Virus record (IMG/VR): IMGVR_UViG_3300038443_002533
Coordinates: 128,001 to 192,000 of that record
DNA length: 64,000 nt
Reading direction: 5' to 3' (one strand)
DNA from: a virus
Taxonomy: Duplodnaviria > Caudoviricetes
Part shown: positions 3,498 through 39,393 of the stretch, in pieces
Numbering within the stretch: the first letter of the stretch is position 1
Layout: each line of letters starts with the position of its first letter
Notes under the pieces: generated by a model
What the model was told of the DNA's origin: nothing
Seen by the model: only the letters and a program-made list of their open reading frames with translations
Databases searched by the model: none
Made by a program: the position numbers and the translations under genes

Positions 3498-3770
3498 ATG
3501 TCGAATATTCGTATTGGCGGGAAGACCTACCGCGACGTTGAAAAGATGTCGTTGGATGAATTGCGGCAAGTGGCGCAAGCGATGTTCAAAAGGTCGACTG
3601 TTCTGCAAAAGACAACCGAGGCCACTGTGTTTAATAAGGGCAGTATGCATCGGGGATCGGCCGTGATCGCAGAAATCCAAGCCCTGGAAAAGCGTTCCAA
3701 GTTAATCGATCACCTGATGAAACAAAGGGAAGCCGATGAACAAACCGCTCAGGCTCCTTCAGGAGCATAA
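3498..3770 (+). CDS. hypothetical protein, paralog B (MSNIRxGxKTYR family)
   Basis: MSNIRIGGKTYRDVE vs MSNIRLGNKTYRNVE. Confidence 0.75.
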   Translation: MSNIRIGGKTYRDVEKMSLDELRQVAQAMFKRSTVLQKTTEATVFNKGSMHRGSAVIAEIQALEKRSKLIDHLMKQREADEQTAQAPSGA

Positions 3771-33046: not shown

Positions 33047-33550
33047 ATGAGAATGCAACGACATTTGGCCACCGAGTCGGACCAACCGACAGGCGAAGCC
33101 GAAGATTCACCGGCCTACATCGAAGCGCTGGCCAAAGCGCAGCCGTACATCGAAGAATGGATCGGCTACGACCTGGACAAGACGCTGTTCCGCCATGACA
33201 AGTGGGAAGGTGTCCTGCATTTCGGCGAACCGATCGTACCGATGCTCGACCGGCTCAAGCAAGACCTCGCTAGTGGTAAGCGAGTAAAAATTTTCACGGC
33301 ACGCGTATCCTACGCCGACGAACGCATCAACACCGTCGTTCGTAAAGCGATCCAAGACTTGATGTTCGAGCATACCGGCCAGGTGCTGGAAGTGACCAAC
33401 ATCAAAGACATGGGGATGCGCAATCTGTACGATGACCGCGCCACCGGGGTGATCCCGAACGAAGGGGTGGTCATCGAAGCCCCTAAACACCTGCCGGGCA
33501 CCAGCGCTCAGTTCACCAAAGATCTGAAAGCCGCCCTCGGTCAAGACTAA
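33047..33550 (+). CDS. HAD-superfamily phosphatase (PNKP 3'-phosphatase-like)
   Basis: WIGYDLDKT (DxD), KIFTAR, VTNIKD, LYDDR. Confidence 0.8.
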   Translation: MRMQRHLATESDQPTGEAEDSPAYIEALAKAQPYIEEWIGYDLDKTLFRHDKWEGVLHFGEPIVPMLDRLKQDLASGKRVKIFTARVSYADERINTVVRKAIQDLMFEHTGQVLEVTNIKDMGMRNLYDDRATGVIPNEGVVIEAPKHLPGTSAQFTKDLKAALGQD

Positions 33551-33555
33551 ACACC

Positions 33556-33822
33556 ATGGCACTTATTCCTACTGGCGTTAACATCATCTACGATCTGTTG
33601 AACGCCCCGAAAGACAAGAACCCGCAAGAGCAGATGGCGGAACTGGGCATCACGTGCCAACGTGTTATCCCCGAACCCATCATCCATCTCTGGCGTTTCA
33701 TCTCTGTTGACCGCGCGACGATTCCCGCTGAGTTGCCCCCGTACCTCAGTCTGGTGTATCTGAACGTCCAGCAATGGAACGAAGAACTCGAAACGCTGAA
33801 GCAACTCAGCCTGAAGAAATAA
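33556..33822 (+). CDS. hypothetical protein
   Basis: 88-aa ORF after the HAD gene. Confidence 0.65.
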   Translation: MALIPTGVNIIYDLLNAPKDKNPQEQMAELGITCQRVIPEPIIHLWRFISVDRATIPAELPPYLSLVYLNVQQWNEELETLKQLSLKK

Positions 33823-33874
33823 ACGGCGTACCACCCACTTGACCCCGACCGCAGTCAGGACCAAGTGGTGTAAG

Positions 33875-34225
33875 TTACGGGTTGTACGGCACGGCCAAAC
33901 CGTTGCTGACGAGTTGATCGTTCAGGCTGGTCGAAGTATTCGGCAGATACACATCCGCCAGATAGCGACCATACTTCTCCTTCTTGTCCGCGACGGTTTG
34001 GATCACCACCGGGGCGTTAGCCGGCAGTTGTTGCTGAAGCCAAGCGCGTGAATCTTTCCCGGCTTGGGTGCTGACTTCGGGGGCGTTGATACCGTTGAAG
34101 CGGCAGGTCATGTTGATGTGGATATCGCATCCCAAGTCAACATTGAATTCTGCGGTATCGCCATCGATGACGCGAATCACGGTGGCGTTACGGATGTACA
34201 CATCTTTCTTTTTGGCGGCTGTCAT
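33875..34225 (-). CDS. thermonuclease (staphylococcal nuclease-like)
   Basis: VIRVIDGDT, RFNGINAPE, EKYGRYLA, LN..LV..GLA. Only convincing minus-strand gene. Confidence 0.9.
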   Translation of the reverse strand: MTAAKKKDVYIRNATVIRVIDGDTAEFNVDLGCDIHINMTCRFNGINAPEVSTQAGKDSRAWLQQQLPANAPVVIQTVADKKEKYGRYLADVYLPNTSTSLNDQLVSNGLAVPYNP

Positions 34226-34273
34226 GGTGGGCTCCTATGCAAAGGGGGTTCATAGCATCCGCGCAGTACCAAT

Positions 34274-34428
34274 GGTCAAGATGGCGAAGTGGAAGACGCA
34301 GCTGACGCTCCGGGTGCAAGTGATCAGTATTTGAACGAGCAGTAGGGTATCTACCGGGTCCATGATCGGGGCGGGTACTCAGATAAACTGTTCTAGTAGA
34401 ACGGAGGTTCGATTCCTTCTCTTGACCA
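34274..34428 (+). ncRNA. tRNA-like RNA 1 (155 nt; expanded anticodon and variable regions)
   Basis: GGTCAAGA/TCTTGACC acceptor, Leu/Ser-type D arm GCG-AAGTGGAAGA-CGC, T arm GGAGG-TTCGATT-CCTTC, ~105 nt between. Confidence 0.7.
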
Positions 34429-34439
34429 CTCAGTTTTAT

Positions 34440-34515
34440 GGGGAAGTCGCCCAGCAGGTTTATTGACCTGACCCACTGTAGGCACGCGCAGGTGCGAATC
34501 CTGCCTTCCCCGCCA
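34440..34515 (+). ncRNA. tRNA-like RNA 2 (76 nt; D and anticodon arms fused into one arm)
   Basis: GGGGAAG/CTTCCCC + G + CCA; T arm GCAGG-TGCGAAT-CCTGC. Confidence 0.75.
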
Positions 34516-34532
34516 CTCAACCGTAGTACGTA

Positions 34533-34692
34533 GGGCATGTAGCTCAGTGATAGAGCACCGTCCATTACCCTTGGGGTCGCTGGTTCGAGTCCAGCCTGGG
34601 GAGTATGCGAATACTCGCTGGTAGCTCAGATGGTTAGAGCACAAGGCTTGCTTAGACGGAGGTCGTGGGTTTGATCCCTGCCATGTCCATCA
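34533..34692 (+). ncRNA. tRNA-like RNA 3: twin tRNA (permuted tRNA nested in the anticodon loop of another)
   Basis: Outer GGGCATG/CATGTCC and CCGTC/GACGG. Inner CCTTG...T arm...CTGGGGA-GTAT-GCGA-ATAC-TCGCTGG...D arm...CAAGG. Confidence 0.85.
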
Positions 34693-34698
34693 AGAATT

Positions 34699-34807
34699 CT
34701 TAATAAGTGGTAAAGTAGATCAACGCGGAGAACCGACGCGCTACAAGGGATACCTCGCTCTGGTTGGTTCACTGGAACGAAGGAGTTTGACCCTGCCACT
34801 TATTAAG
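34699..34807 (+). ncRNA. tRNA-like RNA 4 (long closing stem, T-loop-like hairpin, internal domain)
   Basis: 14-bp stem CTTAATAAGTGGTA/TGCCACTTATTAAG; GTTTGACC loop next to the 3' strand. Confidence 0.5.
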
Positions 34808-34826
34808 TGTTTTTAAGTTTCACGTA

Positions 34827-34964
34827 GGGCGTTTAGCTCAGTTGGTAGAGCACGGCTAAAGGTGGGCACCGACAAACCCACACCAGCTTAACAGGCTGGG
34901 GCCGAAAGGCAGTCACCATTCATTAAAGCCGAGGTCATGTGTTCGAATCACGTAACGTCCACCA
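34827..34964 (+). ncRNA. tRNA-like RNA 5 (69-nt three-hairpin insert replacing the anticodon loop)
   Basis: GGGCGTT/AACGTCC+ACCA, canonical D arm, CGGCT/AGCCG stem, AGGTC, ATGTG-TTCGAAT-CACGT. Confidence 0.88.
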
Positions 34965-34973
34965 AGTTTCAAA

Positions 34974-35040
34974 GGGTGTGTAGCTCAGCTGGTAGAGCGT
35001 AGTCATGCAAGATTGTGGGGGTTCGAGTCCCCCCATTCTC
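34974..35040 (+). ncRNA. tRNA-like RNA 6 (67 nt; 6-nt anticodon loop ATGCAA, 1-nt variable region, no CCA)
   Basis: Canonical D arm and GGGGG-TTCGAGT-CCCCC T arm. Confidence 0.7.
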
Positions 35041-35046
35041 TCGATT

Positions 35047-35138
35047 GGGAATGTGGCGGAATTGGTAGACGCGCCGTTCTAACGGACGGTTATCACATTA
35101 GGCTAAGGTCATGGGTTCAAATCCTGTCACATCCACCA
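35047..35138 (+). ncRNA. tRNA-like RNA 7 (Leu-like; anticodon loop collapsed to 4 nt)
   Basis: GCGGAATTGGTAGACGC D arm, CCGT-TCTA-ACGG, long variable region, T arm, CACATCC-ACCA. Confidence 0.72.
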
Positions 35139-35156
35139 AGTTTCAAGCAGTACCGT

Positions 35157-35234
35157 AGGGGAGTCGCCAAGTTGGTCCAAGGCCCCGGATTTTGATTCCG
35201 GCATTCGAAGGTTCGAATCCTTCCTCCTCTGCCA
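35157..35234 (+). tRNA. tRNA-Gln(TTG)
   Basis: Full cloverleaf AGGGGAG/CTCCTCT, CCGGA-TTTTGAT-TCCGG, G-CCA end. Confidence 0.95.
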
Positions 35235-35315
35235 GATTTTCGTAGGACTGTTTGATGAACAGAGTAAAATCATCATGGTAGAGATACCACTTACTAGGCA
35301 CTAGGAGAATGTACC

Positions 35316-35780
35316 ATGGCTGGATTTGTGAAATTGATGTCGAATGAAAACCTGCCGGACGCAAGTCCGTTCAAAGGCTATCAGCTGATCAGCTTACCGG
35401 ACGCTGGCAAGGTCGAATTCAAACGTAATGAGCGAGGTCTCGATACGTGTGTGATCTACACCCCGGAGCATGATCCAGAAGAATACCTGATGTACGGCAA
35501 TGCGTATATCCTGAGCGACTCGGGTAAAACCATTGCTTCCCATGGCACCAACGTGCCCTGCGCATTGGAACCGGGTCAAGAGATCAATGACGCTAAGGTG
35601 GCGGTTAGCGCACTGCTTACGCTGGAACCTGACGATCTGAAAGCGGCCCTTTGCCATCTGGTTGCAACTAAGCCGGAAACCATCCGTGTCATGGGTGGCG
35701 TCATAGCCAATTTGGCGCGGGCCGGAAACGAAGCTGCTATTTACTCAATTCGTCCCGCGGTCGAACACATCAGCACGTAA
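35316..35780 (+). CDS. conserved hypothetical phage protein (GNAYILSDSGKTI motif)
   Basis: SD AGGAG; motif common in phage proteins. Confidence 0.75.
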   Translation: MAGFVKLMSNENLPDASPFKGYQLISLPDAGKVEFKRNERGLDTCVIYTPEHDPEEYLMYGNAYILSDSGKTIASHGTNVPCALEPGQEINDAKVAVSALLTLEPDDLKAALCHLVATKPETIRVMGGVIANLARAGNEAAIYSIRPAVEHIST

Positions 35781-35956
35781 CACCGATCAATGCCCAAGTC
35801 AGTTATTCCCTCCAACCGATTTCGTCATGAAAGATGGCGCATCTGGCTAAAAGTGAATTCCAAGGCCTGACTAGGGCGCCCCTTTGGCTTTATTAGTTGA
35901 AAGAGGTGTTGTGCCACCACACGCCGTCAATCGAGTAGACTAATAAAGCCTTCCCT

Positions 35957-36032
35957 TCCCCGATAGCTCAGCCGGTAGAGCGACGGACTGTTAATCCGCA
36001 GGTCCCTGGTTCGAATCCAGGTCGGGGAGCCA
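35957..36032 (+). tRNA. tRNA-Asn(GTT)
   Basis: TCCCCGA/TCGGGGA, loop CTGTTAA, G-CCA end. Confidence 0.96.
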
Positions 36033-36039
36033 CGAACAT

Positions 36040-36860
36040 AAAAGCTGGAATCTAAGCTAGTAGAGTTATCCTTTAACTTGTGCTGGGGTTGTGTTGTTGA
36101 CACTTTACAACTAAGGCTTGGGTTCCGCCTTTTGTGTTTAACTGTCTTTGGGTTTGACTTGGATCGACCGCGAGTCGCAATTACCATACGAGCGATTACG
36201 ATTATCGAAGAACATATTGGCCTGACTCACAAGTCACCTGGTCAAACCCACCCTTTTTCAGAGGACGCACGTGAGGTCGTGCAGGCTTGAGTATCAAGTC
36301 TAGAATGGGCGTGGCTCCTTACACCTACGGGGATACTTAAGGGAGTCGAGGGAAGTGAGATCTCATCAATCTCCACAATGTGGGTGCAACCCACCCCAAT
36401 ACTCGCACACAGGAACGCCGTGGAAATCGGTGAACAACCAGGAGATGAGCCTGGTCCTCTGAGCTATTCTAAATAAAGGTACTGATGAGCCGTGGAAGTC
36501 GGCCCCTGTGCATACAGGCAAGGTTGCAAACCCTTCGAAACATCTCTTGCGCTTCAAGATACAACGAGATGTATACCAATGGACTTAACAGTGGTAGCCG
36601 TTGCTCTTGTCACCTCCGGGGTCTTGATGGGAGTCTAGTAGCGTTTCTGACACGAGCGCTGAAACTGTACGACTGGTTCAACCCTGTCGGCGTCTGTCAA
36701 ACGTCGTGGAGAGAGGATCAGTAAGTTGTACAACGCGTAAGCTGTGCCGCACGCTCCTAGTGAGCGGGTTCAGTGAGAAGCTAGGTCGTGCAAGACCAAG
36801 TTGTGCAGCCATTGTGAGATTGCGTCGGTTTGGCCAGACTGGCGCAGTTGTATCGGTGTG
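36040..36860 (+). ncRNA. candidate large structured ncRNA (~800 nt)
   Basis: No credible ORF. Perfect 10-bp long-range helix 36149-36158/36241-36250 plus many hairpins. Confidence 0.55.
36478..36577 (+). ncRNA. type I hammerhead ribozyme-like core with multibranched stem II
   Basis: GGTA-CTGATGA-G...C-GAAA-CATCTC...GAGATG-TA-TACC. Confidence 0.6.
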
Positions 36861-36931
36861 AGGCGGGGGAGGGGTGCAAAACTCTCCCCCGTTTCTTATT
36901 CTTTTTATGCCGTCAAAATCTAGGAGTAACT

Positions 36932-37669
36932 ATGTGGAACTTTTTCAAACGACTGTTTGGCGGTGGTAAACGACAAGAACCCCAGATCGATAAGCCGAGC
37001 GGATCGGCGGGCCGCTGCACACCGTACATGACACCGCTCAGTTCCATCAAACCGAAGTCACCGGAGCCCGTTAAAGAAGATCTGAAGCGCCCCAACGGCC
37101 AATGGGAAGAAACGGAAAACCAACGGCCGCCCGAAAGCGTATGGCAACAAAGCTTGCGGCGCGAAATCAATAAGGTTGAAAAACGTCAACGCTACAATGA
37201 AATTTTGAGCCAAGCTGGGATGGATGTTCGCGCCAGGCGATTCGAAGCCGTGCAACAGTCCGTCGATCGGGTTCGCCAAGAAGCACTCAACTCCGCCACC
37301 CCCCAGATGAGTCGACCGCAATTACCGCCCCATGCGTTGACGGATTCGGCGCGCCTGGATTTGGTCCGAAGAGCAACGCTGAGCACCATGTCCCAGCGCC
37401 CAGGATTACAAGCTGGGCTAGACGCGGTTCAGCGTGACATCGAAGCGCGCCGTCGACAGAACGAAGAAGACGAACGTCGTCGCCGTGAAGCCGATGATGA
37501 AGACCGTCGCCGTCGTAACAACGATGACACATTGAATTTGTTGGTAGGCTTATCCTCGATAATTTCTGACACCGTATCCTCATCGTCTGATTCCAGCCCC
37601 AGCTCGGATCCGTTCAGCGGCGGCGGTGGTTCCTTTGACGGCGGTGGTGCTTCTGGAGATTGGTCATGA
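36932..37669 (+). CDS. hypothetical protein with acidic/Arg coiled coil and Gly-Ser tail
   Basis: SD AGGAG before ATG 36932; ends FSGGGGSFDGGGASGDWS. Confidence 0.75.
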   Translation: MWNFFKRLFGGGKRQEPQIDKPSGSAGRCTPYMTPLSSIKPKSPEPVKEDLKRPNGQWEETENQRPPESVWQQSLRREINKVEKRQRYNEILSQAGMDVRARRFEAVQQSVDRVRQEALNSATPQMSRPQLPPHALTDSARLDLVRRATLSTMSQRPGLQAGLDAVQRDIEARRRQNEEDERRRREADDEDRRRRNNDDTLNLLVGLSSIISDTVSSSSDSSPSSDPFSGGGGSFDGGGASGDWS

Positions 37670-38141: not shown

Positions 38142-38370
38142 CAGATTTAGATAAGGAAAGCCATGTGTGAAGAATTGACGTTACATCCACGGGCGATTTA
38201 CGCATATGAGCTGTCGGATATTCAGTTGCGCAGTTTGTACCGCCTCAACAAGAATGACCTCATGTGTGCGTGGCGCACCCCGACCGGGATCGTCGTGTAT
38301 CTCGATGGCCCCAAGCCGAACTGTTACGCGTGGAAGATGTACGGTTGGGAACCTTTTAACGAGGAAGAAA

Positions 38371-38739
38371 ATGGGTAGACATATTGCCAACGGGCAGATC
38401 GAAGTGAGTCTGCATCGGGATGCCGATTTCTCGTCTATGGCTGAGTGCAGTGCTTGGCTGGCCGAGCGTCTGAGATGGTATCCAAAGGAACATTACACGG
38501 TCACGGTCATGGCGGGCGGCACCTACGGCCTGAAAGGGGTGCTTTTCGATCAGATCTTCGAGCATGATTTTACCGCGATGCCAAATGTGAGCATCGTCGT
38601 GAAAAGATGGGACGACCACCCGAGTTTCTCGGCATACCACGGAACGAATCCTTACCCTGGTAACGGAACCCGTGTATTCGGCAATCGGGTTATGGTTGCA
38701 GCAATTCGGGCGATTTATCACCCGCTAGTGGCAAGTTAG
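38371..38739 (+). CDS. hypothetical protein
   Basis: Likely start MGRHIA at 38371. Confidence 0.6.
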   Translation: MGRHIANGQIEVSLHRDADFSSMAECSAWLAERLRWYPKEHYTVTVMAGGTYGLKGVLFDQIFEHDFTAMPNVSIVVKRWDDHPSFSAYHGTNPYPGNGTRVFGNRVMVAAIRAIYHPLVAS

Positions 38740-38823
38740 TAGTATGTAGTACGTAGTAGGTAGTGCATGATTTATCGGTGGAGATGGTGGGATCGAAAAC
38801 TCCATTCACCATCGAGAAAAATC

Positions 38824-39393
38824 ATGAAGAAAATTGCATCTTTGTTTCAACGTAACTATGACGGCGATCGTCAAGTGCGTAATGAAGTCGTTCCGGGTTC
38901 GGAATGGGTAATCCACGGCGAAGGGTATGCGACCCGTAAATGGGATGGCATGGCTATTAAGCTGGAGAACGCTCAGTTCTTTAAGCGTTATGATGCGAAG
39001 GCTGGCAGAACACCGCCCCCTGAATTCATTCCTGCCCAACCGGCGCCTGATCCACAAACTGGCCACTGGCCTGGTTGGGTGCCGTTGCAAGGGAAAGAAC
39101 TCAATCGCGTAGTAGCGGCGTATCAAGACAGCGGCATCACGGAAGACGGCACATTCGAATTCTGTGGACCGACGATTGGTACCCGCCATGGCGCCAACCC
39201 TGAACGGCTCACCAAGCACATCCTGGTGCCCCACGGGCAAGACATCCTGGCCGACTGTCCGCGTGACTTCGATGGGCTCAAAGCCTATCTGGCGAATGCG
39301 GATATCGAAGGGGTGGTGTGGTGGCATCCGGATGGTCGTAAGGTCAAGATCAAAGCAGCTGATTTTGGCCTCGTCAGGCACGCAGTAATCTGA
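38824..39393 (+). CDS. DUF5565 / RLIG1(C12orf29)-like ATP-dependent RNA ligase
   Basis: Motif I TRKWDG, KRYD, GHWPGW, GTFEFCG, L.PHG, motif IV EGVVW, motif V KIK. Confidence 0.75.
   Translation: MKKIASLFQRNYDGDRQVRNEVVPGSEWVIHGEGYATRKWDGMAIKLENAQFFKRYDAKAGRTPPPEFIPAQPAPDPQTGHWPGWVPLQGKELNRVVAAYQDSGITEDGTFEFCGPTIGTRHGANPERLTKHILVPHGQDILADCPRDFDGLKAYLANADIEGVVWWHPDGRKVKIKAADFGLVRHAVI

Follow-up and report, generated by a model that had tools for sequence, protein, structure and literature searches.

A tRNA-shaped RNA of a phiKZ-like jumbo phage with a conserved three-hairpin module in place of its anticodon loop

The tRNA genes of Lak megaphages hold "enigmatic introns", one of which was predicted to encode a tRNA, and introns in phage tRNAs were described in that study as previously unreported (Devoto et al., 2019; 10.1101/356790, PMC6784885); we found no later explanation of these introns in the literature searched. 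Here we describe W3, a 138-nt tRNA-shaped RNA gene in which a 69-nt insert replaces the 7-nt anticodon loop. W3 lies at 34827-34964 (+ strand) of the window, by which we mean the whole stretch of 64,000 nt that was analysed, bases 128001-192000 of virus record IMGVR_UViG_3300038443_002533; the record is complete, 272,470 bp long, with direct terminal repeats. W3 resembles the Lak genes in having tens of extra nucleotides in the anticodon region and a conserved insert sequence; one Lak insert is tRNA-like, as are those of W3's neighbours, and no known splicing signal was reported in Lak. The Lak phage, however, is a gut phage carrying as many as 35 tRNAs, and its inserts were interpreted as introns, the nominal anticodons being those for Thr, Phe, Gly and Tyr; W3 comes from an unrelated phiKZ-like soil phage, and its clade shows no restorable anticodon loop, covarying insert helices, scaffold swaps, and alanine identity. 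We give an even chance to the reading that W3 is a functional, non-decoding, tRNA-shaped RNA displaying a structured module, and not a tRNA with an intron; with its anticodon loop replaced by a 69-base module, such an RNA could not read codons.

The same topology has been built in the laboratory: the tRNA scaffold of Ponchon and Dardel reportedly keeps the acceptor, D and T arms and carries its cargo RNA on the anticodon stem, the body giving processing and stability. The scaffold is a construct with a known cargo function, and the likeness is one of design, not of descent. An earlier note on this DNA, made from its letters alone, had drawn the same comparison, which holds in that the tRNA body of W3 is complete and its anticodon stem closes a conserved domain that folds separately. 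Like other insert-bearing, tRNA-shaped RNAs of phages, W3 has a tRNA body and an insert of tens of nucleotides on the anticodon stem, and is conserved among relatives. The introns of archaeal and eukaryal tRNAs and the group I introns in bacterial tRNAs also sit in the anticodon loop, but W3, in contrast to them, has no bulge-helix-bulge, EndA, group I core or restorable anticodon loop. Transfer-messenger RNA (tmRNA) shares with W3 a G3:U70, A73, CCA acceptor and an anticodon arm replaced by another domain; its reduced D arm, missing anticodon stem, pseudoknots, tag frame and need for SmpB have no counterpart in W3. YrlA, a Y RNA of bacteria and phages, is likewise a non-decoding RNA, with a tRNA-like domain that is recognised by RNase P, receives CCA and is modified, and it is linked to RNA-repair genes (Chen et al., 2014; PMC4201824, RF02553); W3 has a candidate match to its short motif GNCGAAN0-1G. 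In YrlA, however, the tRNA module is permuted, the acceptor stem is capped and the RNA ends form the Ro60-binding stem, whereas W3 has true tRNA ends and an internal extra domain.

The tRNA body of W3 consists of the following parts.

34827-34964, + strand: W3, the whole tRNA-shaped RNA gene, 138 nt, from the sequence, ARAGORN -i, the minimum free energy (MFE) fold and covariance model R1 (155.8 bits)
34827-34833, + strand: acceptor 5' strand GGGCGTT, paired with 34954-34960 (AACGTCC) and including G3:U70
34836-34851, + strand: D arm, GCTC / AGTTGGTA / GAGC, with G18 G19
34853-34857, + strand: anticodon-stem 5' strand CGGCT, paired with 34927-34931 (AGCCG) and closing the insert
34937-34953, + strand: T arm, ATGTG / TTCGAAT / CACGT
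34961-34964, + strand: discriminator A73 and encoded CCA

The acceptor stem has 7 bp and the anticodon stem 5 bp; U8 and A9 are present in the sequence, the variable loop is AGGTC, and the tertiary-contact nucleotides are canonical (Levitt pair G15:C48, G18 G19, T54 T55 C56, A58). The acceptor, D, anticodon-stem, variable and T arms and the ACCA end, which the earlier note had called canonical, can all be read in the sequence. W3 has the acceptor, D and T arms and the tertiary-contact nucleotides of a canonical tRNA; where such a tRNA has a 7-nt loop that includes U33, the anticodon and the position-37 purine, W3 has a loop of 69 nt. With introns allowed, ARAGORN calls W3 a tRNA with a 62-nt "intron"; default ARAGORN makes no call at W3, and the Rfam tRNA model (RF00005) reports nothing covering 34827-34964 at its gathering score or at E<=10.

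The insert forms a four-way junction together with the closing stem.

34858-34926, + strand: 69-nt insert replacing the 7-nt anticodon loop
34862-34881, + strand: hairpin H1, GTGGG, a 10-nt loop (34867-34876) and CCCAC, from the MFE fold and homologue comparison
34883-34899, + strand: hairpin H2, 5-7 bp, CCAGCTT / AAC / AGGCTGG, from the MFE fold and homologue comparison
34901-34910, + strand: hairpin H3, GCC-GAAA-GGC, with a GNRA tetraloop and containing GCCGAAAG, invariant in three homologues
34911-34926, + strand: single-stranded 3' tail of the insert, with ACCA at 34915-34918

The unconstrained MFE fold of the 138 nt is a cloverleaf plus H1, H2 and H3, so that the hairpins proposed in the earlier note (GTGGG/CCCAC, CCAGC(TT)/(AG)GCTGG and GCC-GAAA-GGC) are recovered without any constraint. 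This fold has an energy of -45.3 kcal/mol (z -2.43; equalled by 3 of 200 shuffles); the insert alone gives z -1.99, and the insert with its closing stem z -2.88. A pseudoknot of 3-5 bp may form between the H1 loop (34871-34873, GAC) and the tail (34912-34914, GUC), the corresponding candidate pairing being GUCGC:GCGAC in the homologues L137 and L144; two of its three pairs covary in register (G-C/C-G, A-U/G-C), a single variant contrast that was found post hoc. No Rfam ribozyme, intron or riboswitch matches over W3 at E<=10, the sole match touching it at that threshold being a 21.8-bit YrlA match lying across W3 and the next gene. The insert occurs just once in the genome, and is therefore not a repeat or mobile element. 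An antisense RNA was rejected as well: the unpaired segments of the insert have no complementary site beyond chance 10-mers.

Homologues were reached through the proteins that flank the array in which W3 lies (a 154-aa protein downstream and a 167-aa protein upstream), on contigs from JGI, ENA and Logan; the flanks of the homologues of both proteins carry similar arrays. There are two clear homologues of W3, L137:5476-5616 (with an identical copy in L138) and L144:6691-6825 (with an identical copy in L145), and one distant analogue, L002:2489-2626 (L002d), whose plan is that of W3 and whose hairpins are unalignable. A covariance model (R1) built from the three close sequences (W3, L137 and L144) gives 151 bits for L144 and 141 bits for L137, beside the 155.8 of W3, and at most 76 bits for all other tRNA or tRNA-like elements in 256 kb of related loci; L002d scores 53 bits, a likeness of scaffold only. 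In the alignment of the three sequences 97.4% of pair cells are standard and 11 pairs are changed on both sides; none of 500 column shuffles was as good, and sliding the partners by 1-3 columns lowered pairing to 33-46%, with 0-1 two-sided pairs. The structure of W3 is thus more than chance, given this proportion of paired cells, the 11 two-sided changes and the near absence of such changes in the slid controls. The changes sit inside or around the supposed intron: 4 of the 5 pairs of the anticodon (closing) stem are changed on both sides among the homologues and L002d, with none disrupted; H1 is closed by G-C in W3 and L137 but by A-U in L144; and in H2 it is pairs 1, 3 and 5 that differ on both sides between homologues.

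The plan is common to all four elements: the 5-bp anticodon stem is followed by a 2-9 nt junction, H1, 1 nt, H2, 1 nt, H3, an ACCA tail and the 3' strand of the stem. H1 has 5 bp and a 10-nt loop of differing sequence in the close three, and 7 bp with UUCG in L002d; H2 has 5-7 bp in all four; and H3, invariant as GCC-GAAA-GGC in the close three, is GAGG-GGAA-CCUC in L002d, the position being GNRA-capped in both cases. The ACCA of the tail is kept in all four, 4 nt past H3 in the close three and directly past H3 in L002d. An internal ACCA was rejected as a class-wide feature, being present in 7 of 32 inserts of the clade and 7 of 63 unrelated ones. The neighbouring proteins are 60-70% identical across the three lineages and all W3-type stems are intact, with the insert far better conserved than the junction strands. 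The earlier note had allowed that the insert might match a known intron or mobile remnant and be unconserved; it matches neither and is conserved in the homologues. No further homologue came from IMG/VR with the exact insert word, with the scaffold pattern (also applied to metagenome contigs) or with the conserved insert word (also applied to GTDB genomes), nor from a protein-guided metagenome scan; blastn of the insert against 50,697 phage records returned only 21-nt chance matches, and a 25-nt match in G002 sits in coding-like sequence. Relatives of the phage's RNA ligase (described below) come without tRNA arrays.

Inserts and scaffolds have been exchanged among these elements. In L137 the W3-type insert is held by a scaffold like that of the gene at 34974-35138 of the window (GGGTGTA.../TACATCC, T loop TTCAAAT), and the exact W3 scaffold (GGGCGTT.../AACGTCC) occurs in the same locus at L137:4602-4758, where it holds a permuted-tRNA insert. 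The W3 scaffold at L149:7170-7296 holds a two-hairpin insert, and L144 combines the W3 scaffold and the W3 insert, with H2 swapped for a T-arm-like hairpin, CCGGG-UUUUGAU-CCCGG. With one insert in two scaffolds, and one scaffold with other inserts, the two must have recombined, and as far as these sequences go the insert behaves as a swappable module.

The acceptor end is also conserved. G1-C72, G2-C71 and G3:U70 are invariant in W3, L137 and L144, and the full set (GGG....UCC, that is, these three pairs, with A73 and CCA) is present in 19 of the 30 insert-bearing elements of the clade. As a comparison set we used unrelated insert-bearing phage tRNA bodies from IMG/VR, retrieved by a pattern of D arm and T loop. 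Of 120 stretches, 82 proved to be single scaffolds, their inserts measuring 14-71 nt; G3:U70 occurs in only 1 of 60. Neither the fetched array loci of the clade phages nor the whole G000 genome yielded a standard tRNA-Ala. Alanyl-tRNA synthetase (AlaRS) identifies its substrates by G3:U70 and A73, and charges minihelices and tmRNA, the anticodon not being read. W3 has the sequence features required of an AlaRS substrate (G3:U70 in a 7-bp acceptor stem, A73 and a CCA end), and these RNAs should therefore be substrates of the enzyme; W3 is probably recognised and charged by the host AlaRS. The otherwise standard tRNA-Gln(UUG) of the clade has G3:U70 with G73 (35157-35234 (+), L146:8454-8530 and L149:7643-7720); G3:U70 is unusual for a non-alanine tRNA, and some mischarging of tRNA-Gln may result.

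Excision of the insert does not restore a decoding loop. We went through each of the 8 ways to split the loop ends in W3 and L002d and, for L137 and L144, compared the tails: no split yields U33 in W3 or L002d, nor a U33-NNN-R37 loop in any of the four, and the one L144 reading that has U33 (UUAAUUA) then has U37 and A34. The nominal anticodons differ among the homologues (ATT, AAT, CAG and CAC). By inspection, the bulge-helix-bulge (3-nt bulge, 4-bp helix, 3-nt bulge) is absent at the insert borders; an AAA 3-nt bulge and a GGTG/CACC 4-bp helix are possible, but beside the anticodon stem the opposite strand has 9 unpaired nucleotides, for which the motif has no room, and GGTG already belongs to H1, so the earlier note was right that an obvious motif of this kind is lacking. 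It was also right that the insert is far too short for a group I intron. The catalytic core of such introns (P3-P9) typically takes 200 nt or more, and a group I intron was rejected at 69 nt with no Rfam Intron_gpI match over W3 at E<=10. EndA (PF01974) was not found in the complete phage genome by a search whose control was positive in 4 archaea, and neither RtcB nor an Rnl2-type ligase was found in the phage; the search for PF09511 (T4 Rnl1) was silent, as was its control. Of the two possibilities that the earlier note had left, a displayed aptamer or a protein-spliced intron, the exchange of inserts and scaffolds favours a displayed module, and the lack of a U33 loop, a shared anticodon, a bulge-helix-bulge and EndA tells against a spliced intron.

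The architecture of W3, its conservation through compensatory changes, the exchange of modules, the alanine identity set and the lack of a canonical anticodon loop are directly established. On our reading of W3 as a displayed module, the complete tRNA body would be a chassis and the mature RNA would still contain the insert, folded into a compact four-way-junction module of three hairpins, one of them GNRA-looped, possibly locked by the pseudoknot between the H1 loop and the tail. Established tRNA biology suggests how such an RNA would be processed, stabilised and charged: the body would let host RNase P and RNase Z cut W3 from the array transcript, the CCA end could be kept or regained through the phage's CCA-adding enzyme, and the invariant G1-C72, G2-C71, G3:U70 and A73 would lead to recognition, and probably charging, by the host AlaRS. 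As a guess, the module might bind a protein or RNA partner, with W3 acting as a decoy or adaptor in the phage-host contest over tRNAs, for instance against tRNA-cleaving defences, or as a platform for phage RNA-repair enzymes.

W3 stands in an array of similar genes.

34274-35234, + strand: whole array context, with insert-bearing genes, a collapsed tRNA-like element and a standard tRNA-Gln
34274-34429, + strand: insert-bearing tRNA-shaped gene (ARAGORN -i)
34533-34689, + strand: insert-bearing tRNA-shaped gene (ARAGORN -i)
34974-35138, + strand: insert-bearing tRNA-shaped gene (ARAGORN -i)
35157-35234, + strand: standard tRNA-Gln

With introns allowed, ARAGORN finds four insert-bearing tRNA-shaped genes in this one + strand array, followed by a standard tRNA-Gln and a standard tRNA-Asn; these are also the only 6 calls in the whole genome, so that the phage has two standard tRNAs only. 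As inserts, the genes at 34533 and 34974 carry circularly permuted tRNA tops, each made up of a T arm, an acceptor stem capped by a loop, and a D arm. The collapsed element is 77 nt long (34440-34516 (+)), with a perfect acceptor (GGGGAAG/CTTCCCC), a T arm and GCCA, and with the D/anticodon region collapsed. The 137-nt spacer directly 5' of W3 (34690-34826 (+)) has a multi-branched fold with a closing stem of about 20 bp (TTAATAAGTGG... / ...CCACTTATTAA; -40.3 kcal/mol, z -2.6, equalled by 1 of 200 shuffles), and may be a further structured RNA of the array. Some 800 nt 3' of the tRNA-Asn (36033-36829) contain no convincing open reading frame (ORF), and a weak RAGATH-1 hammerhead-like match lies at 36431-36578 (20.5 bits, E 3). 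No sigma-70 promoters or intrinsic terminators were found in 33800-36900, a result that tells nothing in the case of a phiKZ-like phage. Relatives have genes for chimallin and for phiKZ-type capsid proteins near the arrays, and we therefore take the phage to be a phiKZ-like, nucleus-forming jumbo phage; among the sequencing runs, its best DNA source is a rhizosphere metagenome.

Several genes for RNA-handling proteins lie nearby, each putatively linked to the array.

38767-39393, + strand: RLIG1-type ATP-dependent RNA ligase with the KxDG motif KWDG (phrog_14301 "RNA ligase", E 1e-71; PF17720, 29.5 bits; PDB 9c6l "RNA ligase1")
33875-34225, - strand: SNase-fold nuclease (PF00565, E 8e-9; phrog_452, E 3e-33)
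33047-33550, + strand: capless HAD-type phosphatase, 167 aa (alignment of the invariant DxDxT; AF2 pLDDT 87; Foldseek)

The nuclease gene is directly upstream of the array and is syntenic beside the arrays of relatives, and in at least 8 related contigs the phosphatase gene lies immediately upstream of such arrays. The phosphatase has no Pfam match; the best Foldseek matches, with weak E values (0.01-0.1), are without exception HAD phosphatases, the T4 Pnkp 3'-phosphatase among them. The phage encodes a CCA-adding enzyme as well, and the set of RNA ligase, nuclease, phosphatase and CCA-adding enzyme is the usual tRNA-repair kit of jumbo phages (PMC7824862). No kinase P-loop was found in the ORFs near the ligase (38206-38739 and 36830-37669), and no family matches the 154-aa protein downstream of the array, whose Atlas model is poor. 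An RLIG1-type ligase, like human C12orf29, is encoded in a jumbo phage.

Several observations weigh against W3 being a functional display RNA. The composition of the array is fluid: the nearest relatives have about 114 nt in place of 34548-35106, and no W3-type gene was found on the short contigs of these relatives (L143, the closest, whose HAD protein is 85% identical, and the RNA-library contigs). The W3 gene is dispensable, since the make-up of the array differs even among close relatives. The covariation comes from only three distinct close sequences, in an alignment fitted to the structure, with each covariation amounting to 1-2 events. Alanine identity is not universal, as L002d has G3-C and a bulged G in the 3' strand, and the tRNA-Gln suggests that G3:U70 may partly be a habit of the lineage. 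The RNA data, from contigs of two root metatranscriptome runs, include contigs of a relative of about 97% identity that cover 34271-34548 and 35106-36002; they do not reliably cover the insert, and the depth over 34827-34964 consists of generic D-arm matches. The RNA ligase lies 3.8 kb downstream of W3, the phosphatase and the nuclease flank the array in synteny among relatives, and this enzyme set could in principle also be suited to cutting and rejoining an RNA. Because of these neighbours we keep splicing as a minority alternative, in which W3 would be an intron-containing tRNA: an endonuclease of phage or host would excise the insert, the HAD phosphatase and a kinase would heal the ends and the RLIG1-type ligase would seal them, giving a decoding tRNA in infected cells only. 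The perfect tRNA body, its acceptance by ARAGORN -i, the phage's having only two standard tRNAs and the short "enigmatic introns" of Lak megaphage tRNAs (10.1101/356790, PMC6784885) speak for this. We nevertheless consider it unlikely, given that no excision point leaves U33 with a purine at 37, that the homologues would yield different anticodons (ATT, AAT, CAG or CAC) with an unmodified A34, and that a bulge-helix-bulge, EndA, RtcB and Rnl2 are absent, with no polynucleotide kinase found beside the ligase. Furthermore, the interior hairpins are kept by compensatory changes and the insert is swapped between scaffolds, both needless for a disposable intron. No splice joint was seen in the RNA-library contigs, which are uninformative either way, the joints listed being 20-nt tRNA cross-matches in DNA runs.

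The remaining explanations have less in their favour. W3 could be a Y-RNA-like adaptor that brings in a nuclease, or a ring protein of Ro60/Rsr type from the host, through its tRNA body and H3 motif, in the manner of YrlA in the rsr-rtcB RNA-repair operon; GCCGAAAG in H3 fits the Ro60-contact motif GNCGAAN0-1G defined for bacterial YrlA (PMC4201824) and is invariant in the three homologues, which is weak evidence. The genes at 34533-34689 and 34974-35138 carry YrlA-like permuted tRNA modules (Rfam YrlA, 31.3 bits at 34558-34662), RNA-repair enzymes are encoded nearby, and some jumbo phages pair TROVE proteins with tRNA-like partners (PMC7824862). TROVE and DUF2828 proteins were not found in the phage genome, however, and the YrlA (RF02553) match at W3 (34912-35025) reaches 21.8 bits against a gathering score of 69 and spans the 3' part of W3 and the 5' part of the next gene, an artefact of adjacency. 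YrlA has its motif in the terminal stem, on the 5' strand, and not in a tetraloop hairpin. The motif is short: 6 of 30 clade inserts contain it where 1.3 would be expected, three of the six being the homologues, and L002d lacks it. We consider this adaptor role very unlikely. A decaying tRNA pseudogene, or a tRNA gene neutrally disrupted and surviving by chance in a fast-evolving array, would fit the varying make-up of the arrays, the missing W3 in the contigs of the nearest relatives and the degenerate look of the adjacent element at 34440-34516. Decay has only a slight chance of being correct when three lineages with only 60-70% identity between their neighbouring proteins keep every stem intact, 11 pairs carry compensatory changes with almost none disrupted, the insert is far better conserved than the junction strands, and the insert, being single-copy, is not mobile. 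The acceptor identity (G3:U70, A73, CCA) and the replaced anticodon arm would also suit a miniature tmRNA-like or aminoacyl-donor RNA, charged with alanine for stalled ribosomes or for an aminoacyl-tRNA-dependent transferase. Neither ARAGORN nor Rfam calls a tmRNA at W3, comparison of the homologues' tails gives no conserved open tag frame or stop codon, there is no pseudoknot set, the full D arm and anticodon stem are kept, and SmpB was not found in the phage; we consider a role of this kind highly improbable.

W3 is thus real and conserved, and belongs to what seems to be an undescribed family of structured RNAs built on tRNA scaffolds in soil phages of phiKZ type. A wider proposal, tentative and rather doubtful, is that soil nucleus-forming jumbo phages keep a toolkit of alanine-chargeable, anticodon-less tRNA chassis with interchangeable modules (three-hairpin junctions, permuted tRNA tops and T-loop hairpins), in which the chassis would engage RNase P/Z, the CCA enzyme, AlaRS and perhaps EF-Tu or the ribosome, while the modules would serve to trap or divert host factors, for example defence nucleases that cleave tRNA, or proteins of RNA repair and of the Ro type. 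If so, it would be a natural counterpart of the engineered tRNA scaffold. If the RNAs are stable and charged, they would form a natural class of tRNA-scaffolded RNAs and extend phage tRNA mimicry beyond codon supply, and they would offer a concrete reading of the "enigmatic introns" known in huge-phage tRNAs since 2019. The conserved alanine identity set leads to a sharp prediction on charging by AlaRS and its dependence on G3:U70, and the swapping of inserts between scaffolds suggests that the system is combinatorial and probably bound up with the conflict of phage and host over tRNAs.

Genes of this kind are missed or mis-called by standard annotation, and cultured Burkholderia and Ralstonia phages hold unannotated examples. 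We observed insert-bearing tRNA-shaped genes in Burkholderia phage FLC9 (L005:3388-3505 and 3536-3671) and Ralstonia phage FLC4-3B (L006:3377-3488), both cultured jumbo phages, where they are unannotated or listed as hypothetical proteins. A separate, widespread family of phage tRNA bodies has inserts with "hairpin + (U/C)ACAGCAA" in common, and a second group of insert-bearing phage tRNA bodies has "GTTACTTC" in common; both groups lie among large arrays of normal tRNAs (IMG/VR loci L009, L017, L019, L023, L047, L052 and L070, and further L071, L073, L078, L079, L091, L097 and L109). The word UAACAGG is common to W3, L137 and the "(U/C)ACAGCAA" group.

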